Shown here: positions 11,709-49,996 of the stretch, piece after piece | Position numbering within the stretch: position 1 is the stretch's first letter | How the letters are laid out: every line of letters begins with the position of its first letter | Translations under genes and position numbers: made by a program | Assembly: GCA_016200085.1 (NCBI GenBank) | Contig: JACQFL010000018.1 | Coordinates: 48,006 to 112,005 of the forward strand | DNA length: 64,000 bases | DNA from: Candidatus Rokuibacteriota bacterium | Lineage (GTDB): Bacteria > Methylomirabilota > Methylomirabilia > Rokubacteriales > CSP1-6 | Direction of reading: 5' to 3' | Notes under the pieces: model-generated | What the model saw: only the letters and a program-made list of their open reading frames with translations | Told to the model about the DNA's origin: nothing | Databases searched by the model: none

Positions 11709-14441
11709 TCAGCGGCTGGGCGGGCTCGGGGGGGGCGCCGCGGGCACCTGGAAGCCGAGCTTCTGATCGGACTTCAACACCGTGGGGGTCAGGAACACGA
11801 CCAGCTCCCGTCCCGTCTCGAAGTTCTCGCGCGACTTGAACAGCCAGCCGAAGAACGGAATGTCGCCGAAGAGCGGCACCTTGCGGTTCGTCACCTGGCT
11901 CACGCCGGTGGTCACGCCACCGACGACCAGGCGCTCGCCCTCCTTGACGATGACCTGGGTCTCCGTCTTGCGCTTGTTGATGGCGGGCGGCTGGCCGGCG
12001 CTGCCGAGGTTCACCACGTTGCCCCGCGAGTTGTTCTCCACGACCACCACCATCTTGATCCTGGTCGCGTCGACTTCGCGGATCACCGTCGGGGTGACCG
12101 TCAGCTGCAGGAGCGCCTCCTTGAACTGGATCTGCGTGCCGGCCGAGCTGATGGTCGCGTACGGAATCTCCTCGCCGAGCGACACCTTGGCGGTCGCGTT
12201 CTCCACCGTGACGATCTCGGGCCGGGCGAGCGTGCGGGTCTTGCCCTGCTCGGCGAGGTCCTGGAGCATGAGGTTGATGTTCAGCCGCGTGCCGACGATG
12301 CCGAACGCGATGCCCGCCGCCGGAAGCGGCCCCGAGTTCGGGAGCGAGGTGATCGGCAGGTTGATGAGGTTGCCGCCGAGGGGCAGGCCGGTGAGGAAGC
12401 TGACCGGCAAGCCGCCGACCTTGGCGTCCGAGATGGACTGGAGCAGCAGGTTGGGGTTGGACGGCACGAACCCGATCGTCGACACCGGATCGAGCAGGGG
12501 CGCCGCGCCGATGAGCCGCCCGGGGATCACGGGCACATTCTGGCCGCTGACGACGGCGGTCTGCAGTCCCTGGCTCACCAGCGACGTCGAGCCGATGTTG
12601 CCGAGCGTCATGCCGCCCCACTGGATACCGATCTGCTCGAGGGCGTTGCGATCGAGGATCTCCATCCGCGCCTCGATCTTGACCTGGGGCAGCGGCACGT
12701 CGAGCGACTCGGAGATCAGCTTCTTCACCCGGTCGAGGTCCGCCGAGTAGAGCCGGAGGAAGAGCGTGTTGGTCGGCTTGTGGGCGCGGATCGTGAGGCC
12801 CTTGGCCAGCACGTCCTGCGACACCGACACGGGCGGCGGCTGCGGAGCGGGCTGGGTCGCCTGCTGACCGTAGAGCTGGGCGAAGGGGGGCTCGGCGATG
12901 AGCGGGCCGCCACCGAGCGTGGTGTTGCCCGTGAGCATGGTGCCCTGCTCGCTGATGCCGAGGATGCCCTGGAGCGTCTTCGCGACCTCGACGGGATCGG
13001 CGTAGAAGAGGCGGAGCGTCTCCTCGCGCAGCGGCCCGCGGGCCTCGGCCTCGCGCGAGGAGGCCTCGGCGGCCAGGCGCTTCTGCTGGACCTCGACCTC
13101 CTTCAGGGCCGCCTCGGCGATGCGCGTGCGGACCTCGGCCTCGGCCTTGACCTTCGCCTCCTCGGCGAGCGCGCGCTGCTGGCGCTCCTTCGTCAGCTGC
13201 TCGTCGGAGACGATGCGGATGATGTTGTCGCGCTCGAGCTTCTGGAGGTTGCGAGCCTCCATGATGATGTCGAGCGCCTGCTCCCAGGTCACGTTGCGGA
13301 GCGAGATCGAGACCTTGCCCTTGACGTCGTCGCCGACCACGATGTTGCGTCCGCTCTCGGCCGCGAGGATGCGGAAGAGGTTCACGACGTCGGCATCCTT
13401 GAACTCAAGCGAGATCAGCCGCTGCTCTCCGGCGCGCCCCGACGCGGCCTGTGGAGTTGGTGCGGGCATCGGTACGAACGAGGGCGGAGTGGACTTCAGC
13501 GGCGCCGGCGGGGCGGCCTGCGCGGCCGGGACCGCGCTGGGCAGGGGCGGGGTCGCTGTCGGTCCGGCGGGAGGCGGCACCGCGATCGGCGGGGCCGACA
13601 GCTGGGCCGTCGCCTTCGGCGCCGGCGCGCTCGCCGGCGGTGGGCTGGCGACGGGCTCCGCGGTCGGGACCGGCGGGGTCACCGGGGCGCGCGCGGACGC
13701 CGGGGCCGCCGCGGGTGAAGGCACGGGCGCCACTGGCGGCGCCGGCATGGCGGAGGCCGGCGTGGGCGACGCCGATGTGGGCGATGCCGGCGCCGCGGGC
13801 ATCGGCGCCGGCGACGTGGCCGTCACCGGCGCGGGCGTGGCAGCCGCGTCGGCGAGCGCCGGGGGAGCGGCGGGCGGCGCGGGCTCGGGAGGAACGGACG
13901 CGACGCGCGGCTCGGGGGCTTCCCGCGACGCGGCCTCCGCGCGCTCTCGCTCCGCCGCCGGCGGCTCCTGCGGCGCGCGACCCACGCCTTCCTGCCGGGG
14001 CGGAAGCGCGGCCGGCGCAGCCTCGCGCGCCGTGGCGCTCGGGATCGCGATGACGAGGCCGTCCGAGGTCTCGTGGATGGCGTAGCCCGTTCGTCCGGTG
14101 AGCTCCACGACGACGCGGGCCACGTCGCGGCGGTACTGGCTGCCGCGGATCTGCCGCAGCGGCTCCTCGCCTACCACGAGGGGCGAGCCGCGCCAGGCAT
14201 ACGTCGTGTCCTCGAGGTCCACCACGAGGCGCGCGGGCGACTCGAGCATCTCGGCGCGATACCGCGGAGGCCCGGCGGCGCGGAGCTCCACGGTGATGGT
14301 GTCGCCCTCGGCGCCGAGGCTGATCTCCTCGAGGCGCGAGCGGCCGGCCGGCGTGCCGGGCGAGGGCATCGTGAAGAGGAGGACCGAGAGGAGGAGACCG
14401 CTTGCTACCCGCGACGCGCGAGTCCGGAGGTGAAAGGGCAT
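11709..14441 (-). CDS. pilQ: type IV pilus secretin PilQ
   Basis: 910 aa: signal peptide, AMIN-like N-domain, about 200-aa Pro/Ala-rich linker, C-terminal secretin domain (..ELVVFLTPTVL..). Confidence 0.9.
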   Translation of the reverse strand: MPFHLRTRASRVASGLLLSVLLFTMPSPGTPAGRSRLEEISLGAEGDTITVELRAAGPPRYRAEMLESPARLVVDLEDTTYAWRGSPLVVGEEPLRQIRGSQYRRDVARVVVELTGRTGYAIHETSDGLVIAIPSATAREAAPAALPPRQEGVGRAPQEPPAAERERAEAASREAPEPRVASVPPEPAPPAAPPALADAAATPAPVTATSPAPMPAAPASPTSASPTPASAMPAPPVAPVPSPAAAPASARAPVTPPVPTAEPVASPPPASAPAPKATAQLSAPPIAVPPPAGPTATPPLPSAVPAAQAAPPAPLKSTPPSFVPMPAPTPQAASGRAGEQRLISLEFKDADVVNLFRILAAESGRNIVVGDDVKGKVSISLRNVTWEQALDIIMEARNLQKLERDNIIRIVSDEQLTKERQQRALAEEAKVKAEAEVRTRIAEAALKEVEVQQKRLAAEASSREAEARGPLREETLRLFYADPVEVAKTLQGILGISEQGTMLTGNTTLGGGPLIAEPPFAQLYGQQATQPAPQPPPVSVSQDVLAKGLTIRAHKPTNTLFLRLYSADLDRVKKLISESLDVPLPQVKIEARMEILDRNALEQIGIQWGGMTLGNIGSTSLVSQGLQTAVVSGQNVPVIPGRLIGAAPLLDPVSTIGFVPSNPNLLLQSISDAKVGGLPVSFLTGLPLGGNLINLPITSLPNSGPLPAAGIAFGIVGTRLNINLMLQDLAEQGKTRTLARPEIVTVENATAKVSLGEEIPYATISSAGTQIQFKEALLQLTVTPTVIREVDATRIKMVVVVENNSRGNVVNLGSAGQPPAINKRKTETQVIVKEGERLVVGGVTTGVSQVTNRKVPLFGDIPFFGWLFKSRENFETGRELVVFLTPTVLKSDQKLGFQVPAAPPPSPPSR

Positions 14442-14909
14442 TCAGTCTCCCGCGAGCTTCAGCACCACGCGGTTCGCCCCGGATCCCGGTCGCGCCGTGA
14501 TCCCGAACACGACGGAGTCGGGCCCGATCTCCACCACCCGGCTTTCGCCCAGCGAGTCGCCCACCCGGAGGATGTACCCCACGCCGTCCGAGGTCTCGAC
14601 GAGCGCCCAGGGCGCGCCGCCGCTCTTGACGATGCCGGTGAGCTTCGCCGTCGTCACCATCGGACGCGCCGTGCCCTCGATCACCTCGAGGGTCTGGAAG
14701 GGGTCGCGCCGTCCCCGGGGCTCGTAGGTCGGCGGCGCCGGCTTTGGCCGCGCGCTCTCCGCGGCGGCCTGGCCGGGGCCGCCCGCGGGCACGGCCGCGA
14801 CCGAGGCGCTCACCTTCGGCGCCGGCGGCGTCGATGACGGCGAGGAGCCGCACGCCGCCGTGCCCAGGACCGCGCCGAGCACGGTGAGCACGCAGGGGCG
14901 CGCCGTCAC
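14442..14909 (-). CDS. pilP: type IV pilus assembly lipoprotein PilP
   Basis: 155 aa, lipobox ..AACGS, size and position between pilO and pilQ. Confidence 0.75.
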   Translation of the reverse strand: MTARPCVLTVLGAVLGTAACGSSPSSTPPAPKVSASVAAVPAGGPGQAAAESARPKPAPPTYEPRGRRDPFQTLEVIEGTARPMVTTAKLTGIVKSGGAPWALVETSDGVGYILRVGDSLGESRVVEIGPDSVVFGITARPGSGANRVVLKLAGD

Positions 14910-15511
14910 TTCTTCTCCTTGCCCTTGGACACGGGGGGTGCGCCGATGGGGCGATACACGTAGGTCGAGACGGTGACGTCGGCGTGGAGCGAGCTGCGTC
15001 CCTTGCCCAGGCCGGCGACCTTGAGATCGCTGACCGTCACGATCCGGGGGATCGCCGCCACCCTCTCGAAGAACTTGCCGAGCTGGTGATAGCCGCCCTC
15101 CACCGCCATCGCGATCGGAATCTCGGTGTAGTAGTCGTGGACCCGGGGCTCCTTGGGCTGGAAGGTCCCGACCTCCAGGCCGGACTGGAACGCCGACTCC
15201 GAGAGCGTGCGATAGAGCGTCGAGATCTCGCGCTCCGCGGGCAGCTTCTCGCGCGTGGCCTCGAGCTGGCGCTCGATCGCGCTGGTCTCGCGCCGGAAGC
15301 GCGCGAGGTCCGCGATGGCCGCCCGGGTCTGGACCAGCTCGGCCTGGACGCTCCGGTTCTGCCCGTCCTGGGCCGCGACCCGCGCCTGCAGCGGTGAGAG
15401 CAGCAGGAAGTAGCCTCCGCCGACGATGACGGCGAGCCCGACGAGCCCGAGCGTGATCTTCTGGGACATCGAGGCGTTGACGAGCGGGTCGAAGATCGCG
15501 GGCAGCGCCAC
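14906..15511 (-). CDS. pilO: type IV pilus assembly protein PilO
   Basis: 201 aa, one N-terminal TM helix plus coiled coil; pilMNOPQ order. Confidence 0.8.
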   Translation of the reverse strand: MALPAIFDPLVNASMSQKITLGLVGLAVIVGGGYFLLLSPLQARVAAQDGQNRSVQAELVQTRAAIADLARFRRETSAIERQLEATREKLPAEREISTLYRTLSESAFQSGLEVGTFQPKEPRVHDYYTEIPIAMAVEGGYHQLGKFFERVAAIPRIVTVSDLKVAGLGKGRSSLHADVTVSTYVYRPIGAPPVSKGKEKK

Positions 15512-15512
15512 G

Positions 15513-16076
15513 TCAGCCCCCGAACCGACAGGCGGCCTCGAACGTCACGAGCCGCGGGTTCTTGGTCAGGTCCTGCTTCGACGACAGGAGGTCGACGTCC
15601 TTGAACCTCCCCGACGATCGCAGGTTCGACAGGAAGTCGGCCACCGCGGTGGCCGAGAACGCCGTGCCGCTCAGCTTGAGCTCGCTGCTCTTGTCCTCGA
15701 GCCCGGTCAGCCAGAGGTCGCGCGGCACCGCGTCGGCGAGAACGTCGAAGAGCGCGGTGGGGCGCGCCTGGTTCTTGGTCAGCTCCTGGATCGCGTCGAG
15801 CCGCTCGCGGAGGTCGCCCAGCTGCTCGCGCACCCTGGCCCCCTGGCCGAGCGTCGTCTTCATGGCCAGCAGCTCGCCGTTGGCCCGCAGGAGCTCGGTC
15901 GACAGCCGGCTTTCCTGGCGCGAGAGCGTGCCGTAGTACACGACGAGCAGCACGAGGCCGACCAGGTACACGAGGCCGAAGCCGAGCCCGACGTTGAACT
16001 CGGGCAGACGGGGCTTGAGCGTGAACGCCGGGCGGCGGCGCGTCTCGGGCGGCGCGAGGTTGATCCGGACGGTCAT
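15513..16076 (-). CDS. pilN: type IV pilus assembly protein PilN
   Basis: 187 aa bitopic protein following pilM. Confidence 0.8.
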   Translation of the reverse strand: MTVRINLAPPETRRRPAFTLKPRLPEFNVGLGFGLVYLVGLVLLVVYYGTLSRQESRLSTELLRANGELLAMKTTLGQGARVREQLGDLRERLDAIQELTKNQARPTALFDVLADAVPRDLWLTGLEDKSSELKLSGTAFSATAVADFLSNLRSSGRFKDVDLLSSKQDLTKNPRLVTFEAACRFGG

Positions 16077-17146
16077 CGCTTCGCCGAGTCCCCGGGCTGG
16101 CGCAGGCCCAGGCCGACCGCGACCGCCAGCGAAGGACCCGCGGCGGCCACCTCCTGCGCGTGCTCCGGCGCGACCTGCACGTGCTCGAACGGCTTGACGA
16201 CCTCGACGGGCACGCCGAACGTCGAGCCGAGATACTCGCGCAGGCCCACGAGCTTCGAGGTGCCGCCGGCGAGGACCATCTTGCTGATCTGCTCGGTGGC
16301 CGCGGTGGAGGCGAAGTAGTCGAAGGCCCGCTGCAGCTCGAGCGCGAGCTCGCGCGAGACGGCGTCACGCACGGGGGCCAGGGCCTCGAGCGCGAACCCG
16401 CCCTCGCGGCCGAGCTTGGCGGCCTCCGCCTGCGCGAACGGGATCTTGAGCCGGGCCGCGATCGTCTCGGTGTAGCGGTTGCCTCCGAAGGGCACGTCGC
16501 GCACGAACAGGGTGGTGCCCCCGCGCACGACGTTGATCTTCATCATGGTGGCGCCGATGTCGACCAGCGCGACCAGCCCCGTCTCCTCGGGGGCGTTCAT
16601 CTCGAACTGGTTGCCGAGGGCGAAGCCGTCGACGTCCACGACGACGGGGCTCAGCCCCGCCTCCTGCACGGCGTTGGCGTACTCGGTGACCTTCGTCTTC
16701 TTGGCGGCCACGAGGGCCAGCTCCAGGACCCTGTCCTGCTGTCCCAGGACGTGGTAGTCGAGGAAGACCTCGTCGATGGCGAAGGGGATCTGGTGCTCCG
16801 CCTCGAGGTGCACCGCCTCGGGCAGCTCGCGGGCGGGGACCTCGGGGATCTGGAGCTTCTTGATCATCAGCTCGCGGCCGCAGATCCCGATGGCGGCGTC
16901 GGTGGTCTTGATCCCGGCCTTGGAGACGGCGTGCTGGATGGCGTCCACCACGGCCGCCAGGTCGTGGATGGTGCCCTCGGAGATGGCCCCGGGCGGCAGC
17001 TCCACCACGCCAAGGGCCTTGAGCGACACTGCAGGGCCCGTTCGGTCGAGCTGGACCGCCTTGACCGCGCTGGAACCGATGTCCAACCCGAAGCAATCCG
17101 GGGGCTTTTTGACACCGAACCGATGAAGAAAGTCCCCGACTGCCAC
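16073..17146 (-). CDS. pilM: type IV pilus assembly ATPase-like protein PilM
   Basis: 357 aa actin-like/FtsA-fold PilM (..FGLDIGSSAVKAVQL..). Confidence 0.9.
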   Translation of the reverse strand: MAVGDFLHRFGVKKPPDCFGLDIGSSAVKAVQLDRTGPAVSLKALGVVELPPGAISEGTIHDLAAVVDAIQHAVSKAGIKTTDAAIGICGRELMIKKLQIPEVPARELPEAVHLEAEHQIPFAIDEVFLDYHVLGQQDRVLELALVAAKKTKVTEYANAVQEAGLSPVVVDVDGFALGNQFEMNAPEETGLVALVDIGATMMKINVVRGGTTLFVRDVPFGGNRYTETIAARLKIPFAQAEAAKLGREGGFALEALAPVRDAVSRELALELQRAFDYFASTAATEQISKMVLAGGTSKLVGLREYLGSTFGVPVEVVKPFEHVQVAPEHAQEVAAAGPSLAVAVGLGLRQPGDSAKR

Positions 17147-17318
17147 CGAGTTGTTATTAGCGCACTCTCAGGAGCCTGTCAAAAGGAAACTTCCAGAAAT
17201 CGGGGGTGTTAGTCGCCCACACTACCAGCGGTTGTACGCGCGAGTGCCGAGACCTTCCCGGCAGGTACCCCGGACGAATCGCTCACGCCGGCGAAGCTGG
17301 AGGCGGCGCCGACGCCGC

Positions 17319-18701
17319 TCAGGGCGAGGCGACTTCCTGGTAGGTGCCCGGCACGAGGAACCACTGCTGGGGCACGGCGGTGTTGCTGCCGGTCCGGGAC
17401 TTGGGGCAGTCATAGGTCGTGTTGCCGCCGTACAGCTCGAGCCCGAGCTGGTCGTACGAGGTCTGGTTGTTGGTCATGTTCACGGTCGACATGTCGATGT
17501 ACGGGCCGCCCCCGGCCACGACGTTGCCGGCCACGGTGGCCCCGCCGCTCAGCCGCAGCGACTTGGCGGTGTACACCAGCCCGGAGAGCGTCGTGGTGCC
17601 GCCGCTGTTCTGGACGATGAGCTCCCCATTCACGATCAACCAGCCGCTCCAGTTGGGATGCTGGTCCATCGTGACCTTCGCCTGGTCGACCGCCTGCCCC
17701 GTCACCTCGGCCGGGATTCCGGTGCCGGGCGAATCGATGAAGACGAGCCCGTTCGGGATCGGCAGGCTGGTGTTCAGGACGAGGCGTCCGCTGGTCAGCG
17801 GCCAGTTCGCGGTGTTCGGTCGGATGTACGTGCCGAAGCCGTTCTGGGCCAGCGTGCGCAGCAGGCCCCACTCGTTCTGGGTGTAGAGCCAGGTCTCGTT
17901 GGGTTGGGTCTGCCACTGGCCGTTGATGGCGGCCAGGGTCTGGGCCGACGTCGAGTTGTCCGCGTTGATATCGCTGACGTTGCCGCTCGCGTTGAGCTTG
18001 CCGAGCTGGGGACCCGTGGCGACCGATGGTTGAGTGATCAGGATGCCCCACTGCTTGGGGTTCGTGTTCGTGACGCAATTGGCCGTGGCCGGCGCCGCGG
18101 AGACCGTGCCGTTCGCGCCGCCGGCCTTTTGCGCGTCGCCGGTGTAGACGCCCGCCGCGGCCGCGGGAAAGCTCAGCGCCCTGAGGTACTGGACCCTCGC
18201 CAGGATCTTGCGCTGGGAGAACCTCGGGTTGGCCATCTGGGCCCCTTGACCCGAGACCGCGGCCGCCTGGCCGACCACCTGGAGCTGGTACATGTTGCCG
18301 GGATCGGCCGGATTGCCCCCCTGGACCCCTTGCTGCCAGGCCTTGATGCTGAACGTCGCGGTGTTGTTGAACGCGAAGTTGGTGGCGCCGTCGTACGGCG
18401 AGGCGGCGACGGCAGCGATGAGGTCGTTCCGGATCATGGTGTTGCTGTCGGCGCAGGGCCCCGTGGGCGCACAGTGCGACAGCGCCCAGATCGCCCGCTC
18501 GAAGCCGGCGTCCGCCGCGGAGTGCGCGAGCATGGACGCCTGGAGATTCGAGGCGATGGTCGGCTCGAGCGCGGCATAGGAGCTGAACGTGACGGTCAGC
18601 GCCAGGATGATGGCCAGGGCGACGAGCGTGAGCGGCAGCACGACGCCGCGCTGGTCCCTCAGCGGACGCATCACGCTGGCGTCAGCACGATGAGCAGTCA
18701 T
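17319..18701 (-). CDS. PilX-like large minor pilin / pilus assembly protein (copy 1)
   Basis: 460 aa; N-terminus DQRGVVLPLTLVALAIILALTV resembles the PilX N-domain; Asn/Gly/Thr-rich C-terminal region; paralog of 19863..21224. Confidence 0.6.
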   Translation of the reverse strand: MTAHRADASVMRPLRDQRGVVLPLTLVALAIILALTVTFSSYAALEPTIASNLQASMLAHSAADAGFERAIWALSHCAPTGPCADSNTMIRNDLIAAVAASPYDGATNFAFNNTATFSIKAWQQGVQGGNPADPGNMYQLQVVGQAAAVSGQGAQMANPRFSQRKILARVQYLRALSFPAAAAGVYTGDAQKAGGANGTVSAAPATANCVTNTNPKQWGILITQPSVATGPQLGKLNASGNVSDINADNSTSAQTLAAINGQWQTQPNETWLYTQNEWGLLRTLAQNGFGTYIRPNTANWPLTSGRLVLNTSLPIPNGLVFIDSPGTGIPAEVTGQAVDQAKVTMDQHPNWSGWLIVNGELIVQNSGGTTTLSGLVYTAKSLRLSGGATVAGNVVAGGGPYIDMSTVNMTNNQTSYDQLGLELYGGNTTYDCPKSRTGSNTAVPQQWFLVPGTYQEVASP

Positions 18702-19299
18702 AGGCGGTCCGGCTCCTGAGCTGTACGCGGGTCGAGTTCTTCACCAGCTGGTACTGGGGCGACGAGCTGCTCGGGTTGTCCTCGTTCTGGGTCTGCAGCG
18801 CGATGGTCACCGCGAAGGCCTTGTCGTAGGTCGTCCGCGTGCTGCCGGTGCGGTCCCAGCACTGGACCGAGAAGAGGTTGACCCCTCCCACCAGGGTCAC
18901 GGTGGCACCGCTGTTCTCGCCGGAGGCCGTGCGCTGCAGGTTGGCGCCGCTCACGGCGTAGTGGATCGTCTGCGCCGTCTGACACAGCCCGTGCAGCGTG
19001 TTGTCCGTGTTCCACGTCAGGCAGGTGTTGAAGGTGACGTCGCTGGCGCCGCTCGCCTGGTCGCAGCTGGCGCCGGCGGTGAAGATCGCGCCGCCGGCGT
19101 CGGGCTGGGCCCCGAGGAGCTCCGCCGCCATGCGGGCCAGCGTGGTCCGCGCGTTCTGCTGGACGGCCACCCGGGCGTCGCCGACGCCGATCGAGATCAT
19201 GCCCTGGCTGACGACCGCGAAGACCCCGGCCAGCACGATGGCGGCCACGGTGCAGCCGATGAGGAGCTCCACGAGGCTGAAGCCGCGCTGGTGGCTCAT
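18682..19299 (-). CDS. PilW-like minor pilin (copy 1)
   Basis: C-terminal 205 aa of the 716-aa track ORF; prepilin N-terminal motif QRGFSLVELLIG; ATGA overlap with the upstream gene stop. Confidence 0.7.
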   Translation of the reverse strand: MSHQRGFSLVELLIGCTVAAIVLAGVFAVVSQGMISIGVGDARVAVQQNARTTLARMAAELLGAQPDAGGAIFTAGASCDQASGASDVTFNTCLTWNTDNTLHGLCQTAQTIHYAVSGANLQRTASGENSGATVTLVGGVNLFSVQCWDRTGSTRTTYDKAFAVTIALQTQNEDNPSSSSPQYQLVKNSTRVQLRSRTAYDCSSC

Positions 19300-19862
19300 T
19301 GCGTGGCGCGCCCGCGCTTGGCGACCAGCGCGTCGAGCTCCACCGTGAGCGGCGAGCCGGTCAGGCCGCCGGTGGCGACGAGGGGGGTGTAGGTGACCTT
19401 GACCTGCACGACCCGCAGGTCGGGGTCGCTGATCTGCTGGGCGCCGGTGCCCGAGCACAGGGGCGTGTAGGTGCTGTTCGAGCAGTCGAAGATCCGCACC
19501 GTGCGCGTGTAGCCGTAGAAGCCCTGGGCGTTGAGGTTCGTCAGGTCCGCCGCGTCGGTCCCGAAGGTGGAGTAGTTGCTGCCGTGGCTGTTGCAGGTGC
19601 TGGATTGGGGCTCGGTGCTCGCGTTGCTCGACTTGCCGAGACAATCGACGTCCGGGTTGAGCGTCCACGTCGCGCCGCGCACCCGCTCGAGGCGGTCCTG
19701 CGCGAGGAACATCGCGGCCGACATCTGGTTGCCGATCTGGACGCCCGAGACGCCGAAGGGCACCACGCTGGCCAGGCCGACGAGCGCGATGGCCACGACC
19801 GCGGTGGCGACCATGACCTCGGCGAGGGTGAAGCCGCGCGGATCGCATGGCCGGACGGCCAC
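19296..19862 (-). CDS. PilV-like minor pilin (copy 1)
   Basis: 188 aa, prepilin motif PRGFTLAEVMVATAVVAIALVGL. Confidence 0.75.
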   Translation of the reverse strand: MAVRPCDPRGFTLAEVMVATAVVAIALVGLASVVPFGVSGVQIGNQMSAAMFLAQDRLERVRGATWTLNPDVDCLGKSSNASTEPQSSTCNSHGSNYSTFGTDAADLTNLNAQGFYGYTRTVRIFDCSNSTYTPLCSGTGAQQISDPDLRVVQVKVTYTPLVATGGLTGSPLTVELDALVAKRGRATQ

Positions 19863-21224
19863 CTAGTTGGAGACCTCCTGGTACGTGCCCGGCACCACGA
19901 ACCAGCGCTGGGGGATCGCGGTCTTGTTCGACCCCGACCCCCCGTTGCGGCTGCTCTGGCAGCCATAGGTCATGTCGCCGCCGTAGAGGTTGAGGCCACC
20001 CTGGGCCTCGGTCACCGGGCCGGTCAGGTAGGGGCCGCCCCCGGCGACGCCGATGCCCGAGATCTTCGTCCTGTCGTTCAGGGTCAGGCTCTTGGCGGCG
20101 TAGGTCAGCCCGTTCAGCGACGGATCGGGGTTGCCGCTCGTCCGCGTCAGGGTGAGGTCGCCGTTGACGATCAGCCATCCGTACCAGGTCGCCCCCAGCG
20201 ACTTGACGATCACGGTCGCGCGGGTGTCGCTGCCGTTCACGGCGTCGATGGTGGCGTCGCTGAACGAGGTGCTCGGATCGATGAAGACGAGGCCGCCCTG
20301 GCTCGGCAGCGGGTGGGTGCTGTCGAAGACCAGGTTGCCGCCGCCGTCGAGGTTGCTGCCGTAGGTCCCGCTGCCCTGGCGGACGTAGGTGCCGAAGCCG
20401 TTGCGGGCCAGGGTTCTGAGCAGGCCCCATTCGTCCTTGGTGAACAGGTAGGGAAAGCTCGTCGCGTCCGTCTTCGTGTTGTTGCCGCCGTCGCCGTTCG
20501 CATTGATCTTGGAGGCGTTGGTGATTGACGCCCCGGAATAGATGGCGTACGGGCTGGTGTTGTTCTGCGCGCTGCAGTTGTTGTTGTGGTCGGCGCTGAC
20601 GGTGCTGGTGTTGCTGCCGTCGCCGTTGGCGCCGTACGGCGTGACGGCGGCGCCCCAAGTGGCCGCGTCGGTGGCCGGGCCGAAGGGCCGGAGATACTGC
20701 AACCGGGCCCAGATCTTGCGCTGGGAGAACTTCGGGTTGGCCATCTGGCTGCCCTGACCCGTGGTGGCGGCCGCCTGGCCGATCACCTCGAGCCGGTACA
20801 TGTTGCTCGGGTCGGGGTTCGCGCCGTTCCACTGCCAGGCCTTGACGCTGAACGACGCGGTGGTGTTGAAGGGGAAGCTGGTGGCGCCGTCGTAGGGCGC
20901 GGCCGCGGTCGCGTTGCTGAGGTCGTTGCGGATCATGGTGTTGCTGTCGGCGCAGGGCCCCGTCGACGCACAGTGCGACAGCGCCCAGATCGTCCGCTCG
21001 AAGCCGGCGTCCGCCGCGGAGTGGGCGAGCACGGACGCCTGCAGGTTGGCGGCGATGGTCGGCTCGAGCGCGGCGTAGGAGCTGAACGTCACCGTCAGCG
21101 CCAGGATGATGGCCAGCGCGACGAGGGTGAGCGGCAGCACGATGCCCCGCTGGTCTCCGAGCATGGGGATCACCGGGATCGCGCTGCCTCGCCCCGGCCC
21201 GCGGTCAGCACGTCGTGCAGTCAT
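19863..21224 (-). CDS. PilX-like large minor pilin / pilus assembly protein (copy 2)
   Basis: 453 aa; first ~110 residues after the DQRG motif nearly identical to copy 1, C-terminal half diverged. Confidence 0.6.
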   Translation of the reverse strand: MTARRADRGPGRGSAIPVIPMLGDQRGIVLPLTLVALAIILALTVTFSSYAALEPTIAANLQASVLAHSAADAGFERTIWALSHCASTGPCADSNTMIRNDLSNATAAAPYDGATSFPFNTTASFSVKAWQWNGANPDPSNMYRLEVIGQAAATTGQGSQMANPKFSQRKIWARLQYLRPFGPATDAATWGAAVTPYGANGDGSNTSTVSADHNNNCSAQNNTSPYAIYSGASITNASKINANGDGGNNTKTDATSFPYLFTKDEWGLLRTLARNGFGTYVRQGSGTYGSNLDGGGNLVFDSTHPLPSQGGLVFIDPSTSFSDATIDAVNGSDTRATVIVKSLGATWYGWLIVNGDLTLTRTSGNPDPSLNGLTYAAKSLTLNDRTKISGIGVAGGGPYLTGPVTEAQGGLNLYGGDMTYGCQSSRNGGSGSNKTAIPQRWFVVPGTYQEVSN

Positions 21225-21828
21225 AGACCGTCCGGCTCCTGAGCAGCAGGCGAGTCTTGTTGGTCACGAGCTGGTACTGCGGATTGCTCGACGAAGGGTT
21301 GTCCTCGTTCTGGGTCGTCAGGGAGATCGTGACCGCGAACGCCTTGTCGTAGGTCGTCTGGACCGGCGTTCGGGTGGAGTCCGTCCGGTCCCAGCACTGG
21401 ACCGCGAAGGCCTGGACGCCGCCCACGAGCGTCACCGCGACCCCGCTGTTCTCCAGCGACGCCGTGCGCTGCAGGTTGGTGCCGCTGACGGCGTACCGGA
21501 CGGTCTGCGGCGTGGTGCACTTGCCGGTGTTGGCGTCCCAGCCGCCGACGGTGCACGCGTTGAAGGTGACGTCGTTGGCGCCGCCCGGCTGGTCGCAGTT
21601 GGCGCCGGCGGTGAAGATGGCGCCGCTGGCGTCCGGCTGGGCGCCCAGCATCTCCGCGGCGATCCGGGCCAGCGTGGTCCGCGCGTTCTGCTGGACGGCC
21701 ACCCTGGCGTCCCCCACGCCGATCGAGATCATGCCCTGGCTGACGACCGCGAAGACGCCGGCGAGCACGACGGCGGCCACCGTGCAGCCGATCAGCAGCT
21801 CGACGAGGCTGAACCCGCGCTGGCTCAC
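21205..21828 (-). CDS. PilW-like minor pilin (copy 2)
   Basis: C-terminal 207 aa of the 325-aa track ORF; VSQRGFSLVELLIGCTVAAV..; GTG start in a GTGA overlap; highly similar to copy 1. Confidence 0.7.
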   Translation of the reverse strand: MSQRGFSLVELLIGCTVAAVVLAGVFAVVSQGMISIGVGDARVAVQQNARTTLARIAAEMLGAQPDASGAIFTAGANCDQPGGANDVTFNACTVGGWDANTGKCTTPQTVRYAVSGTNLQRTASLENSGVAVTLVGGVQAFAVQCWDRTDSTRTPVQTTYDKAFAVTISLTTQNEDNPSSSNPQYQLVTNKTRLLLRSRTVYDCTTC

Positions 21829-22367
21829 GGGGTCGCGAGGCCGCGCTTGGCGACCAGCGCGGTGAGCTCGACGGTGATCGGCGTGCCCGTGAGCATGCCG
21901 GTGGCGACGAGGGGCGTGTAGGTGACCCGGACCCGCACGACCCGCAGGTCGGGGTCCGAGATCTGCTGCGCTCCGGTCCCCGAGCACAGCGCGGTGAAGG
22001 TGCCGTTGTTGCAGTTGAAGACGCGGGTGGTGCGCGCGTAGCCGGCGAAGCCCGTGACGTCGGTCTCGTCGTCGCCGAACGTCTTGTAGTTGTTCGGGTG
22101 ATTGTTGCAGGTGTCCGATGTGGGCACGTTGCTGGCGTTGCTCGACGTGCCGAGGCAGTCGGTGCCGGGGGTGTCCGTCCACACCGCGCCGCGCGCTTGC
22201 TCGAGACGCTCCTGGGCGAGGAACGTGGCGACGGAGAGCTGGTTGCCGATCTGGACGCCCGAGACGCCGAAGGGCACCACGCTGGCCAGGCCGACGAGCG
22301 CGATGGCGATGACCGCCGTCGCGACCATGACCTCGGCGAGGGTGAAGCCGCGCGGATCGCCGGTCAC
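21825..22367 (-). CDS. PilV-like minor pilin (copy 2)
   Basis: C-terminal about 180 aa of the 360-aa track ORF; ..DPRGFTLAEVMVATAVIAIALVGL..; GTG start in a GTGA overlap with the upstream stop. Confidence 0.7.
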   Translation of the reverse strand: MTGDPRGFTLAEVMVATAVIAIALVGLASVVPFGVSGVQIGNQLSVATFLAQERLEQARGAVWTDTPGTDCLGTSSNASNVPTSDTCNNHPNNYKTFGDDETDVTGFAGYARTTRVFNCNNGTFTALCSGTGAQQISDPDLRVVRVRVTYTPLVATGMLTGTPITVELTALVAKRGLATP

Positions 22368-22843
22368 GGGCCGATGGACACCCGGCCGGAGACGGCCACG
22401 ATCACCGACAGCGTCTGGGACGTCGTGGTGTTCTGCACGGTGTAGGTCCCGCCGGGGGACGCGGCTCCGAGGTTGGTGAACTGCACGGACGCGCCCGGGT
22501 ACGCGCTGATGATGATGCTGTTGTTCAAGCCCGTCCACCCGTTCGTGTCCGACGTGAGGGCCGTCCACGGCGTGGTGCCGATCATGACCTGGAACTTGCC
22601 GGCGGTGCCCCCGCTGCCGCCGTTGACGGTCACCGTCTGGTTCTGGCGGATGGCCAGGGCCCGGGCCGTGTTGAGGATCGACGCCAGCTCCTGGGCGCCG
22701 CTCTTCACCATCGACGTCTGCCAGTAGTTGGTGAACGTGGCCATGGCGGTGACCGTGATGACGGCGGTGATGCCGACGACGATGACCAGCTCGATCAGGG
22801 TGAACCCCCGAGCGTTTATCTGGCGAAGGCGGCCAGCCACCAT
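22364..22843 (-). CDS. FimT/FimU (GspH-like) pseudopilin
   Basis: C-terminal 159 aa of the 369-aa track ORF; MVAGRLRQINARGFTLIELVIVVGITAV; GGAGGAG Shine-Dalgarno 4 nt before the ATG. Confidence 0.65.
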   Translation of the reverse strand: MVAGRLRQINARGFTLIELVIVVGITAVITVTAMATFTNYWQTSMVKSGAQELASILNTARALAIRQNQTVTVNGGSGGTAGKFQVMIGTTPWTALTSDTNGWTGLNNSIIISAYPGASVQFTNLGAASPGGTYTVQNTTTSQTLSVIVAVSGRVSIGP

Positions 22844-23577
22844 ACGGCTCCTCCCGGGGCGAGGGCACGAGACCCCCATAATAGTGCGGCGGCTCCTCCG
22901 GAGGCAAGGCACGGCCCGAACGGGATCGGGTCCTTCCGGCCCTTGCGGCCGGACACGAGCAGGGCCGTGGCGACGGCGCCGCCGAGCACGACGGCCACGA
23001 ACAGCGCGAACAGCCCGGCGCGCCAGCCCAGGAAGGCCCCCAGCATGGCCGCCAGCTTCATGTCGCCGCCCCCCATGCCCCCGCCGCTGGCCAGGATGAT
23101 CGCGAGGAAGATCCCGCCGCAGACGGCCGCGCCGATCAGCGCGTCGCTCCAGGCGACGCGGCGCGTGATCACGTTGGCGAGAACCCCCACGACGATGCCG
23201 GGCAGCGTGATGACGTCGGGGATGAGCTGGTGCGTCAGGTCGATCCCGGTGATCGCGACGAGCGCCGCGAGCAGCGCCAGGGCGACGGGCAGCTGCGCGC
23301 TCCAGCCGAACGTCGCCCACGCCAGCGCGAAGAGCGCGGCGGTCGCGGCCTCGACGATCGGATAGCGGGGCGAGATGGGCGCCTCGCACGCCCGGCAGCG
23401 GCCGCCGAGCGCGAGGAAGGACAGGAGCGGGATGTTGTCGAACCAGGCGATCGTCGCGCCGCAGACCGGGCACGCCGAGCGCGGGCGCACCAGGCTCCGG
23501 CCTTCGGGCAGCCGGGCGATGACGACGTTCAGGAAGCTGCCGACCAGCAGCCCGAGCACGACGATGGGCAGCATCAT
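22816..23577 (-). CDS. pilD: prepilin peptidase PilD (A24 family)
   Basis: MMLPIVVLGLLVGSFLNVV.. with CPVCG..CRAC zinc-binding cysteines and polytopic peptidase domain; an alternative start 12 codons upstream is possible. Confidence 0.85.
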   Translation of the reverse strand: MMLPIVVLGLLVGSFLNVVIARLPEGRSLVRPRSACPVCGATIAWFDNIPLLSFLALGGRCRACEAPISPRYPIVEAATAALFALAWATFGWSAQLPVALALLAALVAITGIDLTHQLIPDVITLPGIVVGVLANVITRRVAWSDALIGAAVCGGIFLAIILASGGGMGGGDMKLAAMLGAFLGWRAGLFALFVAVVLGGAVATALLVSGRKGRKDPIPFGPCLASGGAAALLWGSRALAPGGAVWWLAAFAR

Positions 23578-23779
23578 GGCGCGATCATTGCCGCCCGGCG
23601 TGCAGTCCATGTGGCGGGCATCGCGACAGGCAACGGACCCCCTCGTGAGCGCAAGCACTCCCCCCACTCCACGGGCTGTCATCGGCGTGTCCGAGGCCCT
23701 TGCGGAGGCCCCGCCGGCAGGTTTTCCCCGGCCGGCTACCCCGTCCGTGCCCGATCGGCACGGAGCGGCCGGTCCGGGA

Positions 23780-25747
23780 CTACCAGCGCTCCAGGAACAC
23801 GGGGGCCACGAAGCCGGCAAGCCGGCCGTCGAGGCTCTGCAGCTTCTCCCACTGCGCTCGCGCCTGCTCCTCGCGGCCGGTCGCCGCGTAGGCGAGCGCC
23901 AGGCCCACGCGGGCCGGCGCGCTCTCGGGGCTGACCCCCAGGGAGCGCTCGAAGTACGGCACCGCCCGGTCCGGCCGTCCCGCGGCCGAATAGGTGAATC
24001 CGATGTTGGCGAGGAGCACCGGCTGATCGGGCTGCAGGCGCTCCGCCGCCTGCAGCTTCGCCAGCGCCTCGTCGTAGCGCTTCAGGTACAGCAGGATCAC
24101 GCCGACGTTCTGCATCAGCTCGGCGCTGTTCGGCTTTCGCCGCAGGAGGCTCTCGAAGTGCGCCAGCGCGGCGTCGAACTCTCCCAGGTTGCCGAGCGTG
24201 ATGGCCAGGTTGCTCTCGCCCTTGTCGCGGTCGGGCCGCAGCTCCATCACCCGCTCGAAGTGGCCCCGGGCGAGCACGTAGAAGCCCTGGTTGTAGAGGA
24301 GGACGCCGAGGTTCGTCCGGCAGATGGAGCAGGTCGGCTCCGTCTCGAGCGAGTAGCGCCAGAGGCTGTCGTCGTCCTTCCACACCTGGACCTGTTGCCA
24401 CGTGAGGATCGCCAGGCCGATGGTCGCGAAGGCGAGCGCCGCCGCGGCGAGGCGCGCGATGACGGGCCGCACGACCTCGGCGCGCGCGAGCGTCACCAGC
24501 CCGCCGACCGCCGCGCCGAGGAGCAGCGCCCAGCTCATGCACGGCAGGTAGCTGTAGCGGTCGTGGGTGAGCTGGTAGCCCGAGTGCACGACACCGCTGA
24601 CCGGCGCGAGGGTGACGACGTAGAAGGCGGCGGCCGCGAGCCCGCCCGGCAGCGCGCGCCGCAGCGCGAGCACCAGCGCCGCGATCGACAGCACCGCGAT
24701 CATGGCGGACAGGAACGGCCAGTCGCGCAGGTGGATCGTCGCGGGCAGCTCGTGCAGCGGCGACAGCCCCGTCGGCACGATCGTCTTCCAGAGGTAGAAC
24801 CAGTAACTGTAGAAGACCATGCCCACGCGCGCGCTCGGCGGGTACTTCTGGAGCGACGTCACGTAGTGATTGGACGCCTGGGCCCAGTAGCCGACGGCCG
24901 CGCCCAGGAGGCCGAGGGCGAGGAAGGGCACCTTCTCCCGCCACACCGCGCGCGCGGCGGGCGACGCGAGCTGGCGCCAGTCGGTGGGCAGGCGACGGAG
25001 CGGGTAGAAGTCCATGATGATCAGCGCGAGCGGCAGGGTCATCACCATGGACTTGGAGGCCAGCCCGAGCACGAAGCAGCCGGCCACCGCCACGAGCAGG
25101 CGCCGGCGCCGCCCGCCGTCCGCGTCGACCGCCTTGAGGTAGGCGAGTACGGCGAGCAGGAAGAACATCCCCGACAGCACGTCGCGCCGCTCCGTCGCCC
25201 ACGCGACCGATTCGGCGCGGAGCGGGTGGACGGCGAAGAAGAAGGCGGTGGCGGCGGCGGCCAGCCGCAGCGCCCCGGCCTCGAGGCGCAGGGCGCGGCC
25301 GAGCAGCCGCAGCGCCACGAAGTACATCAGGGCCGCGTTGACGGCGTGGAGCACGACGCTCCAGAGGTGATAGCCCATCGGCTTCATCCCCCAGAGCGTG
25401 TAGTCGAGCCCGAAGGTCAGCCAGGTCAGGGGGATGTAGTGGCCCATCAAGACGGTGGAGAACATCCAGCGGATGTTCCGCCAGCCCAGGCCCCGGAAGT
25501 CCTGGTTGTCGAGGAAATTGATGCGATCGTCCCACTCCACGAAGCCGTGCCACAGGGTCTCGGAGAAGGCAAGGAAGGTCACCACGGTCAGGGCAACCGG
25601 GATCGCGCGCGTGACCCGGGCATCGGCGGCGAGCCGTCGCAGCAGCCGTCCGACGGCCGGCGCCGCCGCGCGCTCGGCGGCGGGGACGATCAGCTGATCC
25701 GTCGACGACATCGAAACCTCGTGAGCAGGAGTGGCCATTCGTTCCAA
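23780..25747 (-). CDS. TPR-repeat membrane protein, TMTC/PMT-like (putative glycosyltransferase family)
   Basis: 655 aa; multi-TM N-domain containing ..VHPLRAESVAWATERRDVLSGMFFLL.. and C-terminal TPR repeats. Confidence 0.6.
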   Translation of the reverse strand: MERMATPAHEVSMSSTDQLIVPAAERAAAPAVGRLLRRLAADARVTRAIPVALTVVTFLAFSETLWHGFVEWDDRINFLDNQDFRGLGWRNIRWMFSTVLMGHYIPLTWLTFGLDYTLWGMKPMGYHLWSVVLHAVNAALMYFVALRLLGRALRLEAGALRLAAAATAFFFAVHPLRAESVAWATERRDVLSGMFFLLAVLAYLKAVDADGGRRRRLLVAVAGCFVLGLASKSMVMTLPLALIIMDFYPLRRLPTDWRQLASPAARAVWREKVPFLALGLLGAAVGYWAQASNHYVTSLQKYPPSARVGMVFYSYWFYLWKTIVPTGLSPLHELPATIHLRDWPFLSAMIAVLSIAALVLALRRALPGGLAAAAFYVVTLAPVSGVVHSGYQLTHDRYSYLPCMSWALLLGAAVGGLVTLARAEVVRPVIARLAAAALAFATIGLAILTWQQVQVWKDDDSLWRYSLETEPTCSICRTNLGVLLYNQGFYVLARGHFERVMELRPDRDKGESNLAITLGNLGEFDAALAHFESLLRRKPNSAELMQNVGVILLYLKRYDEALAKLQAAERLQPDQPVLLANIGFTYSAAGRPDRAVPYFERSLGVSPESAPARVGLALAYAATGREEQARAQWEKLQSLDGRLAGFVAPVFLERW

Positions 25748-25806
25748 CGCCCGGGAGCGCCGATCAGGCGTCCCGGGCGTTGAGGTTCAGCGTGGCGATC
25801 TGATGC

Positions 25807-26220
25807 TTACGGCACCGAGGCGGTGGCGCCGTCGCCCGAGGCCGAGATCGTGAAGAAGCCGCCCGTCGCGGTGCCGAAGCCGTAACCGCCCGCCGGGGTC
25901 CAGCCCGTCGGAACGGACGGGATGGCTGCGATGAACGGACCCGCCGTTTGCCCCTGACCGTTGGAGGCGGTCGTGGTCAGCTGTCCCAGCGCCGTGGCGG
26001 TGATGCCGGTGTGGGCCGAGTAGATGGTGATGGCCGACGCCATCGACCGGACGTCCGCCTGGGCCTTGGCGATGCGCGCCCGGGCCTGGACGGCGTTGTA
26101 CAGCGGGATCGCGATGGCCGCGAGAATGCCGATGATGGCCACGACGATCATGAGCTCGACCAGCGTGAAACCACGCCGGTTGCCGAGCCTGAACCGCGAC
26201 TTCCTCCAGAACTCGCTCAT
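25807..26220 (-). CDS. pilA: type IV major pilin PilA
   Basis: 137 aa; leader MSEFWRKSRFRLGNRRG then mature FTLVELMIVVAIIGILAAIAIP; AGGAGG Shine-Dalgarno about 8 nt upstream of the ATG; Ser/Thr/Gly-rich C-terminus. Confidence 0.85.
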   Translation of the reverse strand: MSEFWRKSRFRLGNRRGFTLVELMIVVAIIGILAAIAIPLYNAVQARARIAKAQADVRSMASAITIYSAHTGITATALGQLTTTASNGQGQTAGPFIAAIPSVPTGWTPAGGYGFGTATGGFFTISASGDGATASVP

Positions 26221-26280
26221 TTGTGTTCCTCCTACCTCCGTGGGAATTTGTCCACCAGCTTGGTCTGGGAGCGCACGAGG

Positions 26281-26300
26281 ATACAGCACGGTTCGTGCCA
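26281..26300 (-). promoter_or_regulatory. sigma-54 (-24/-12) promoter candidate upstream of pilA
   Basis: minus strand reads TGGCAC-gaacc-GTGCT, matching TGGCAC-N5-TTGCW at 15/16 positions, about 60 nt upstream of the pilA ATG and next to pilR. Confidence 0.6.
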
Positions 26301-26406
26301 CGGGCGTAGACCTTACCCGAGCTTATGAATCAATGTGTTGTGCGGTGCTCTACCGACGCGAGATCCTTGCGTTGACGGATTATGGCGAGGGAGGTGACAA
26401 AAAACG

Positions 26407-27825
26407 TCAGCTGCCTGGCGAGGGAGCCTCCGAGGCCCGCTCGAGATCCGGCGAGGGCCGCACGTTGTGCTTCTGCAGCTTGTAGCGCAGCTGCCGGAAA
26501 CTCAGCCGCAGCAGCTCCGCCGCGCGCGTCTGCACGCCGCCGGTGCGGCCGAGCGCCATCTTGATGAGCTGGTGCTCGAGGCGGTCGAGCGTCGCGTCGA
26601 GATCGAGCCCGCCGTCGGGGATCTCGATGGCGAAGTCCGGCACGTCCCTCGTGCGGCGGACGCTCGGCGGCAGCGCGTCGGGGCCGACCATGTCCGACCC
26701 GCCGAGGACGATGGCGCGCTCGATCGCGTTCTCCAGCTCCCGGATGTTGCCCGGCCAGTGGTAGTGCTCGAGCAGGCCGAGCGCCTCCGGGGTGATGCCG
26801 CGCATGTCCTTGCCGGATTCCTTGGAGAGCTTCTTCAAGAAATGCGCGACGAGGACCGGGATGTCGTCCCGGCGGTCGCGCAGCGGCGCCAGATGCACGG
26901 GAATGACGTGGAGGCGGTAGAAGAGGTCCTCGCGCAGCAGCCCTTCGCCCACCGCCTTCTCGAGGTCGCGGTTGGATGCCGCGATGACGCGCACGTCGAC
27001 CTTGATGTCCTTGGTGTCCCCGACCCGCCGGACCTCGCGCTGCTGCAGCACCCGCAGCAGCTTGACCTGGAGCGACGCGGGGATCTCGGTGATCTCGTCG
27101 AGGAACAGGGTGCCACCGTCCGCGGCCGAGAACAGGCCCTGGGCGTTGGCCACCGCGCCGGTGAACGAGCCGCGCACGTGCCCGAAGAGCTCAGACTCCA
27201 TCAGGGCCTCGGGGATGGCGCCGCAGTTGACGGAGACGAAGGGGCCGTCGCGCCGGGCGCTCTCGTAGTGGATGGCCCGGGCCACCAGTTCCTTGCCGGT
27301 GCCGCTCTCGCCCGTGATCATCACCGTCGAGGTGGACTCCGCCGTCTTGCGGATCATCTCCATCACCTCGAGGATCGGCGCGCTCTTGCCGATGAGGTTC
27401 TCGATGCCGCGCTCGCGGCGCAGCGCGCGCTTGAGGGCGACGTTCTCGTCCTGCAGCCGCTTGCGCTCGAGGGCGTTGCCGATGATCAGGCGCATCTCCT
27501 CGAGCTTGAACGGCTTGGTGATGTAGTCGTAGGCGCCGACCTTCATGGCCTGCACGGCCGTCTCCGCGGAGGCGAAGGCCGTGATCACGAGCACGGCGGT
27601 GCTCGGCGAGGTCTCCTTCACCGCCTTGAGCACGGCGAGGCCGTCCACCTTGCGCATCCTCAGATCCGTGATGACGAGGTCGAAGGCCTCGCGCTTGAGG
27701 ATCTCGATGGCGCGCTCGCCGCCGTCGGCGAGGGTCAGGTCGTACCCGTCCTGGGTCAGGGCGATGCCCAGGAGCTCCCGCATGCTCCGCTCGTCGTCGA
27801 CGACCAGGACGCGACCCGTCGGCAT
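26407..27825 (-). CDS. pilR: sigma-54-dependent two-component response regulator PilR
   Basis: 472 aa: receiver domain (VLVVDDE..D..), AAA+ sigma54-interaction domain ([14 protein letters not shown]-like), C-terminal Fis-type HTH. Confidence 0.9.
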
Positions 27826-27830
27826 GGCGC

Positions 27831-30661: not shown

Positions 30662-30665
30662 GGCC

Positions 30666-31775: not shown

Positions 31776-31787
31776 GCTGCCAGTCTC

Positions 31788-47188: not shown

Positions 47189-47189
47189 C

Positions 47190-49987: not shown

Positions 49988-49996
49988 AGCGACGTC

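Follow-up and report, generated by a model that had tools for sequence, protein, structure and literature searches.

The window considered here is a 64,000-nucleotide stretch of contig JACQFL010000018.1, a 178-kb contig in a metagenome-assembled genome (MAG) of an uncultured soil bacterium, Candidatus Rokubacteria. Between a gspH-like gene and pilMNOPQ it contains two copies of a unit of about 2.5 kb that consists of a PilV/GspI-like gene, a PilW/GspJ-like gene and a large gene in the PilX/GspK position. In the following H denotes the single GspH/FimT(U)-like gene, V2, W2 and X2 the genes of the upstream cassette and V1, W1 and X1 those of the downstream cassette (Table 1). The initial annotation of this DNA had proposed a tandem duplication of a pilX-pilW-pilV module behind a single fimT/U-like gene, and this duplication of a three-gene minor-pilin cassette is confirmed: the units are direct repeats, with 75% identity between V1 and V2 (E 2e-98), 77% between W1 and W2 (E 2e-115) and 51% between X1 and X2 (E 3e-140), the DNA repeats being 75–90% identical at a spacing of 2499–2559 nt. 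In a global alignment that included the flanks, the homologous region begins around V codon 4 and extends to the third-last codon of X. The proteins comprise 180 and 188 (V), 205–207 (W) and 453 and 460 residues (X). X1 and X2 are identical to the NCBI ‘hypothetical proteins’ HY294_06130 (X1) and HY294_06145, albeit that the NCBI annotation starts both at a later ATG (ATG 18671, giving 450 residues, for X1; ATG 21164, giving 433 residues, for X2). The coupling of the genes by overlapping start and stop codons that had been pointed out previously is found as GTGA at H/V2 and V2/W2 and as ATGA at V1/W1; W and X overlap by 20 nt, given the first ATG of X, and the TAG stop codon of X2 directly abuts the GTG start codon of V1. 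As a possible trace of the duplication event the microhomology GTCTCC at the junction (3′ end of H and 3′ end of X) was considered and discarded, the flanks being about 61% identical over 23 nt, which is too weak.

The duplicated units are embedded in a complete type IVa pilus (T4aP) cluster that occupies 11.7–33.5 kb of the window and lies on the minus strand throughout, in the order pilB, pilT, pilC, a sensor kinase region, a sigma-54 response regulator, the major pilin gene pilA, a gene for a 655-residue TPR membrane protein, pilD, the GspH/FimT-like gene, the six V/W/X genes, pilM, pilN, pilO, pilP and pilQ, followed by aroC. Thus, a prepilin peptidase and an assembly machine accompany the pilin-like genes, with pilD adjoining, pilB, pilT and pilC upstream and pilMNOPQ downstream, and two V-W-X sets stand beside one H, one pilA and one pilBCMNOPQ set. 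The pilMNOQ products are 40–70% identical to their counterparts in related Rokubacteria loci, in which synteny is conserved. No PilY1-like protein and no extra pilin were found among the other large open reading frames (ORFs) of the window, in agreement with the initial annotation, and none of the 28 other candidate ORFs scanned had a PilY1-type Pfam match (0/28). Nor does pilY1 adjoin the minor pilins, as X1 is followed after a gap of 172 nt by pilM.

Table 1. Minor-pilin genes of the duplicated cassettes and surrounding pilus genes, with their positions in the window.
Feature	Position	Strand	Remark
H, GspH/FimT(U)-like minor pilin	22364-22840	minus	single copy; Pfam GspH
V2, PilV/GspI-like	21825-22367	minus	upstream cassette (copy 2)
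W2, PilW/GspJ-like	21205-21828	minus	upstream cassette (copy 2)
X2, large PilX/GspK-position protein	19863-21224	minus	upstream cassette (copy 2); 453 aa
X2 hypervariable middle, about residues 186-262	20439-20669	minus	pLDDT <50
V1, PilV/GspI-like	19296-19862	minus	downstream cassette (copy 1)
W1, PilW/GspJ-like	18682-19299	minus	downstream cassette (copy 1)
X1, large PilX/GspK-position protein	17319-18701	minus	downstream cassette (copy 1); 460 aa
X1 hypervariable middle, residues 181-275	17877-18161	minus	
sigma-70-like promoter match	22878-22907	minus	weak consensus; just upstream of H; only match in 16900-26600
pilB	31788-33521	minus	Pfam T2SSE/MshEN
pilT	30666-31775	minus	Pfam T2SSE
pilC	29453-30661	minus	Pfam T2SSF
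sensor kinase region	between pilC and pilR, in 25807-33521	minus	
pilR	26407-27825	minus	Pfam Sigma54_activat/Response_reg
pilA, major pilin	25807-26301	minus	N_methyl and PilA_Myxo N-terminal match
pilD, prepilin peptidase	22816-23820	minus	Pfam A24_N_bact (E 1.7e-34), Peptidase_A24 (E 3.5e-20)
pilM-pilN-pilO-pilP-pilQ	11709-17146	minus	ORFs; synteny with related Rokubacteria loci
pilM	16073-17146	minus	
pilQ	11709-14441	minus	

How well are the small pilin-like proteins identified? H matches Pfam GspH (PF12019) over residues 49–152 with 36.2 bits (cut-off 21; E 9.5e-9) as well as N_methyl, and its leader reads NARG/FTLIE, with Glu+5 present. The prepilin N_methyl motif (PF07963) is passed by H, V1, V2, W1 and W2 with 25–32 bits at a cut-off of 21.2 (E 1.8e-6 for V1, 9.5e-7 for V2, 7e-8 for W1 and 1.6e-6 for W2), and the V and W proteins carry Glu+5 as well. 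V1 and V2 score 29 and 22.9 bits with the PilV model (TIGR02523; cut-off 52.2) and 22.5 and 23 bits with GspI (TIGR01707; cut-off 44.35), both cut-offs thus being missed, and the resemblance is mostly confined to the N-terminal 60–85 residues. W2 reaches 17.2 bits (E 3.6e-3) with GspJ (TIGR01711; cut-off 64.85) and W1 is not matched; for W, size and gene order are the grounds of the assignment. What backs the names pilV, pilW and pilX given earlier is gene order together with sub-threshold hidden Markov model matches, but no protein of the window attains a curated PilV, PilW/GspJ or PilX cut-off. The DNA-binding motif of the DNA receptor FimT is a C-terminal GRxR (PMC8897410); H does not contain it, ending in SGRVSIGP with the first arginine only. 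A homologue of H in a related locus (L021:21-458) ends in GRIRIQ and has the complete motif, which is partial at the C-terminus of H in the window (22364-22390).

The X proteins start with DQRG, followed by some 20 hydrophobic residues without Glu+5, and are not matched by PF07963. Whereas H-, I- and J-type pilins carry prepilin motifs with Glu+5, GspK/PilX does not, and the missing Glu+5 is a hallmark of this tip subunit. Against Pfam and NCBIfam X1 and X2 have no match up to E 10, apart from PilX_N (PF14341), of which the gathering score is 25.5 bits and which X2 meets with only 9.7 bits (E 1.1) and X1 not at all. PilX_N is matched by 16 of 22 members of the X family (E up to 0.1; best E 4.2e-6), PF14341 being precomputed for one member, and all members share the N-terminus (D/E)QRG-hydrophobic helix-SEPxIAxN...AE(S/A)GxERAxWAL, likewise without Glu+5. 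An exhaustive HMMER search of 1.84 billion cluster representatives yielded 175 matches (E up to 1e-3), of which about 60 are full-length. Full-length relatives in a species-level genome collection are nearly all from MAGs of Rokubacteria/Methylomirabilota; this collection was scanned with the pattern AE[SA]GxER..W, which does not match the ADAGFER of the window's own proteins, so that very close relatives could be missed. X1 and X2 are by far each other's best match among 5.8 billion proteins and the 1.84 billion representatives, and no relative above about 32% identity was found in these two sets or in the JGI metagenome contigs. X thus belongs to a previously unannotated, small family that is almost confined to Rokubacteria/Methylomirabilota and of which all members are labelled ‘hypothetical protein’.

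AlphaFold2 models of X1 and X2, built on an alignment of 22 sequences, have predicted local distance difference test (pLDDT) values of 64 and 69, respectively. Both copies are predicted to begin with a long N-terminal helix and a four-strand sheet, to continue as a variable region modelled at low confidence and to end in a beta-rich C-terminal domain that is modelled confidently. The secondary-structure elements follow each other as four strands, the variable region, a helix, the beta-rich block and two short terminal strands, an order compatible with a ComZ-type solenoid pilin. In a Foldseek comparison with the PDB the top match for both models is ComZ (6QVI; E 3.1e-4 and probability 0.90 for X1, E 2.7e-3 for X2), and the next matches are DUF3494 ice-binding beta-solenoids such as FfIBP (probability up to 0.85, TMt 0.46). 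The structure prediction proposed in the initial annotation for the C-terminal part of X thus delivers a beta-rich domain with ComZ at the top of the list, at weak scores. ComZ of Thermus thermophilus, encoded in pilA1-pilA2-pilA3-comZ-pilA4, consists of a pseudopilin-like domain and an FfIBP-like solenoid; it has been argued that ComZ is located at the pilus tip and binds DNA as well as PilA2, its GspI-like neighbour, in an organism without PilY1 (PMC6561018). The likeness would be twofold, as both are large proteins in the GspK/PilX position, encoded after GspH-, GspI- and GspJ-like pilins, and both, in the case of X according to the models, combine a pilin-like domain with a large ice-binding-protein-like beta-solenoid, with the same two structural comparisons coming up (PMC6561018). 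There are also differences: ComZ and X have no detectable sequence similarity, ComZ is single-copy and longer, its solenoid comprising some 380 residues, and it binds DNA via two lysines, whereas the solenoid parts of X are acidic (pI 4.3–5.7) and rich in Asn, Gly and Thr. Judging from the models, X is likely to be a ComZ-like solenoid tip pilin, and the earlier suggestion that X is a variable tip adhesin gains in its tip-subunit part from the predicted ComZ-like fold and from the PilX_N matches in the family. A DNA-receptor role for X, considered on electrostatic grounds, is unsupported given the acidic domains; ComZ, too, has no obvious basic patches (PMC6561018), and a DNA role of X is therefore still possible.

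The two cassettes did not diverge evenly. X1 residues 21–180 are 81% identical to X2, residues from about 181 to 275 are 25% identical and essentially unalignable, and the C-terminal 185 or so residues are, at 48% identity, clearly homologous. The near-identical N-terminus of X described in the initial annotation is thus present but covers about 160 rather than about 110 residues, and the C-terminal halves, described there as divergent, have indeed diverged, albeit that only the segment of about 181–275 defies alignment. Similarly, V and W, taken to be highly similar throughout, are similar over most of their length but each contains one divergent central patch. The hypervariable middle of X, with a non-synonymous divergence (pN) of 0.5–0.6, is also the most variable and most gapped part of the family alignment, and amino-acid divergence is concentrated in this middle and in the solenoid part. 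Synonymous divergence (pS) between the units is about 0.35, which shows that the duplication is old. The module alignment and dN/dS estimation that had been suggested gave, by the Nei-Gojobori method, ratios of 0.52 for V, 0.39 for W, 0.29 for X residues 21–180, about 1.8 for residues 181–275, where the alignment is unreliable at 25% identity, and about 0.9 for residues 276–460. As G+C at third codon positions (GC3) is about 95% and so extreme a value inflates the ratios, only the contrast between regions is meaningful. With homologues from 18–37 related loci as outgroups, family-conserved residues are kept to the same degree in the two copies (23 and 24 of 31 in V, 31 and 31 of 41 in W, 54 and 54 of 78 in X), and derived changes are distributed symmetrically (6 and 4 in V, 3 and 4 in W, 20 and 19 in X). 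Decay of one copy is rejected on these grounds; both copies appear to be maintained, neither having the look of a decaying pseudogene.

Possible traces of exchange between the units are seen in the segments encoding the N-terminal helices. Among codons for identical amino acids the N-terminal parts show a lower share of synonymous differences (34/215) than the remainder (100/311; Fisher p 2e-5 for a partition chosen post hoc). Up to 27 consecutive codons are identical (permutation p 0.037), and exact identical stretches between the units reach 69 nt, which exceeds the minimum that RecA-dependent recombination usually requires. Taken together, these observations hint at gene conversion or at nucleotide-level constraint in the helix-coding segments, and they show that unequal crossing-over between the units is feasible. 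The possibility of recombination between the repeats, raised in the initial annotation, thereby receives some support.

The comparison with 70 related loci (L numbers) places the window among its relatives. The usual arrangement in Rokubacteria/Methylomirabilota is pilA-(TPR membrane protein)-pilD-H-V-W-X-(237-residue TPR/CarboxypepD_reg-like protein)-pilMNOPQ and comprises a single module; this module is also found as a separate H-V-W-X-(237-residue protein) operon at other places in the genomes, and in several MAGs two or three such loci are present. Ten loci (L005, L006, L010, L012, L015, L016, L018, L021, L030 and L033) share with the window both the X family and the position pilD-H-V-W-X-pilM. 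Two of them, L021 and L033, contain two V-W-X modules and one H in the pil cluster as the window does, but these modules are of two distantly related types, and the window is the only locus in which the entire V-W-X unit is present as two sister copies. Arrays of X are found in L005 (5495-10493), arranged X-V-W-X-X with three X paralogues that are 72–78% identical, and in L030 (172-4085), with three tandem full-length X matches in tblastn. Since the copies of the window are each other's closest relatives, the duplication is lineage-specific; given the multi-module loci and the X arrays, cassette expansion, of X above all, is recurrent in the phylum, and the window is one particular, relatively young instance of it.

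Two observations on these loci may be added. The second V-W-X type (L021:455-2917, L033:3661-6208), which adjoins the usual module in two MAGs, encodes a W of 265–278 and an X of about 400 residues, and this X resembles that of the window at the N-terminus only, its C-terminal part containing repeated GN..V.G beta-helix-like motifs. The protein of about 237 residues, with weak TPR and CarboxypepD_reg matches, is encoded directly after X in most related H-V-W-X modules (L001-L009, L017, L019, L023, L025-L027, L032, L033, L035, L045 and L046; for example L033:9185-9898 and L004:3800-4507) and is lacking in the window as well as in L010, L012, L015, L016, L018, L021 and L028; it could be an accessory factor of the minor-pilin module.

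Multiple minor-pilin sets as well as solenoid PilX/ComZ proteins are already described. In Synechocystis two sets, PilA5-8 and PilA9-12 (Com and EPS core minor pilins), prime distinct pili, and for cyanobacteria it was proposed that a beta-solenoid PilX replaces the PilY1 plug, the PilV and PilX subfamilies co-varying (bioRxiv 10.64898/2026.02.12.705559). As in the window, two FimT-PilV-PilW-PilX type sets serve one type IV pilus (T4P) machine with one major pilin; however, the cyanobacterial sets are anciently diverged subfamilies at separate loci and differently regulated, whereas those of the window are recent paralogues (51–77% identity), directly in tandem, apparently in one operon and with a single H. 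Myxococcus xanthus likewise possesses several FimU-PilV-PilW-PilX sets, clusters 1–3, alongside a single T4aP machine and a single major pilin; for piliation either cluster_1 or cluster_3 is enough by itself, the proteins of cluster_2 were undetected, and the minor-pilin complex primes extension and is located at the tip (PMC7541494). Each of these sets has its own FimU and PilY1, they are dispersed in the genome and their PilX is matched by PilX_N, in contrast to the window with its single H and no PilY1. The gene order H-I-J-K of the window is also that of GspH-GspI-GspJ-GspK in the type II secretion system (T2SS) and of FimU-PilV-PilW-PilX-PilY1-PilE in Pseudomonas aeruginosa. Both of these are single sets, and the small PilX of P. 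aeruginosa works with PilY1. GspK has an alpha-helical insertion, not a solenoid (PMC6561018). Of interest in the locus described here are the tandem, operon-internal and H-sharing arrangement and the unannotated, phylum-restricted family of probable tip pilins.

How could one machine make use of two such cassettes? The explanation that we favour, and consider reasonably probable, is that the locus encodes two alternative tip/priming complexes with a GspH-like adaptor, a machine and an operon in common, a solenoid pilin of the ComZ kind taking the place of PilY1. Each V-W-X set would assemble into a separate trimer in the inner membrane, prime pilus extension and end up at the tip, the single H would couple either trimer to PilA, and the solenoid of X, if folded as predicted, would cap the fibre in place of the absent PilY1. 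Since the duplication, the parts that would dock onto filament and machine have stayed similar, possibly via gene conversion, and the exposed middle and solenoid of X and central patches of V and W have diverged strongly. As a scan of 16900-26600 found nothing like a promoter or terminator between the cassettes, both are probably made together, and individual machines primed by one or the other cassette would give rise to mixed pili with two tip specificities from one transcript. Conserved docking parts together with diverged exposed parts point to such a mixture, and the cell can probably make pili with two different tips. The mechanism is proposed by analogy with GspHIJK, FimU-PilVWX(-PilY1) and ComZ/PilA2 and would fit the cyanobacterial model of ‘distinct core minor pilin complexes’. 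The duplication with its boundaries, the pil context, the pilin motifs, the equal retention of conserved residues and the pattern of divergence are observed; the fold (from models of moderate confidence), the tip location, the separate trimers, their different ligands and co-transcription are what we infer, and the ‘alternative tip complexes’ and ‘variable adhesin’ of the initial annotation would be of the same standing.

Several points weigh against this explanation. The locus is known by sequence alone, from a MAG of an uncultured organism; V and W lie below the curated PilV and GspJ cut-offs and X below that of PilX_N; and the fold scores are modest (pLDDT 64–69, Foldseek E 3e-4 and 2.7e-3, TM about 0.2), with no sequence-level match of the X-family profile among all PDB chains beyond a chance hit at E 0.81. 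The dN/dS values come from simple Nei-Gojobori counting at a GC3 of about 95% with an uncertain alignment of the middle region, and where a ratio approaches or exceeds 1, the cause may be misalignment or a relaxation of constraint, not diversifying selection. Moreover, in one apparent operon without an internal promoter-like site the differential regulation typical of known multi-set systems is not evident, and cross-pairing between the cassettes is possible.

As another explanation, the second copy could belong to a strain present in the same sample or be a repeat that was mis-assembled, the contig being metagenome-assembled and no second independent contig of the locus having been found in the protein sets and JGI metagenome contigs. 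The copies are, however, 10–25% apart in nucleotides and contain indels, far too much for expansion or collapse of a repeat, and the junction from the X2 stop to the V1 start is clean and in frame; in addition, the units begin and end where genes do, the contig is 178 kb long, and similar multi-module or multi-X arrays occur in MAGs from other studies. An assembly artefact, named in the initial annotation as the finding that would overturn the duplication, is thus barely conceivable, a verdict drawn from the divergence and the junction. A genuine but redundant duplicate is a more serious contender: as a neutral by-product of unequal crossing-over it would contribute dosage or nothing, and the divergence of X would reflect relaxed constraint, with which the C-terminal dN/dS of about 0.9, the apparent co-transcription of the cassettes and the fact that a single module at this position suffices for most relatives would be compatible. 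Yet both copies are intact despite their age, have kept conserved residues equally at symmetric rates and show ratios of 0.29–0.52 for V, W and the N-terminus of X, and the independent recurrence of X amplification in the phylum suggests a benefit, all of which makes redundancy unlikely in our estimate.

Alternatively, the cassettes might act jointly, either because their subunits cross-pair or because both trimers are needed, for example one priming and one being incorporated later, in a single composite tip system. The near-identity of the N-terminal interaction segments, at 93–97% of nucleotides for the V N-terminus and 90–95% for the X N-terminus, renders cross-pairing physically plausible, and the shared single H and the single operon would also suit joint action. 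Known systems, on the other hand, use one H-I-J-K type set per tip (PMC7541494; bioRxiv 10.64898/2026.02.12.705559), relatives function with one module, and divergence of X was paralleled in the central patches of V and W, as expected of co-adapted cognate partners, so that joint action seems distinctly unlikely. A further idea, which we hold to be highly unlikely, is that the tandem cassettes constitute a recombination-driven tip-variation system, in which conversion or unequal crossing-over via the N-terminal segments would swap solenoid and loop regions. If this were true, the number of cassettes could change and a population would continually yield new tip specificities, allowing it, for example, to follow changing surfaces or to escape phages that bind the pilus tip, by a logic like that of Neisseria pilE/pilS but acting on the tip complex, not on the major pilin.

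Tip complexes of T4P serve in priming, adhesion, DNA capture and surface sensing, and how one machine serves several of these tasks is an active question. With two alternative tip complexes, the explanation favoured above, the locus would represent a young stage of ‘several tip sets, one machine’, with the sets still in tandem, adaptor and operon shared and divergence focused on the exposed solenoid subunit, and X1 and X2 would offer a natural paired comparison for solenoid recognition. The X family moreover provides an annotation handle for the genomes of the abundant uncultured soil phylum Rokubacteria/Methylomirabilota.

Some features of the neighbourhood deserve mention. The gap between X1 and pilM (17147-17318, minus strand) contains, read by eye and below the criteria of the promoter scan, TTGACA-17 nt-TAATAA, which may be a separate promoter of pilM. 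The 655-residue protein between pilA and pilD (23780-25747, minus strand) is composed of a large N-terminal multi-pass membrane part without Pfam match and C-terminal TPRs, and its position is conserved in L033, L038 and L041; possible roles are assembly of the pilus or modification of pilins, for instance as a glycosyltransferase. The pilA ORF (25807-26301) has a long N-terminal extension before the cleavage motif RRG/FTLVELM, at least 17 residues from the nearest Met, and mature PilA would have about 120 residues and no cysteine. Finally, positions 46000-64000 have a lower G+C content than the rest of the window (57–64% versus about 70%) and look like a mobile defence island, with genes for an M78/IrrE-like peptidase (47088-47987), a UDG-like protein (49274-49987), a Mutator-family transposase (51979-53181), a DndB-like protein (53301-54251), an AIPR abortive-infection protein (54340-56061), an SMC/AAA_23 ATPase (56476-58533), a ResIII/DEAD helicase (58588-60657), DndB (60813-61949) and a PAPS-reductase/Sp-DndD protein (61953-63356).

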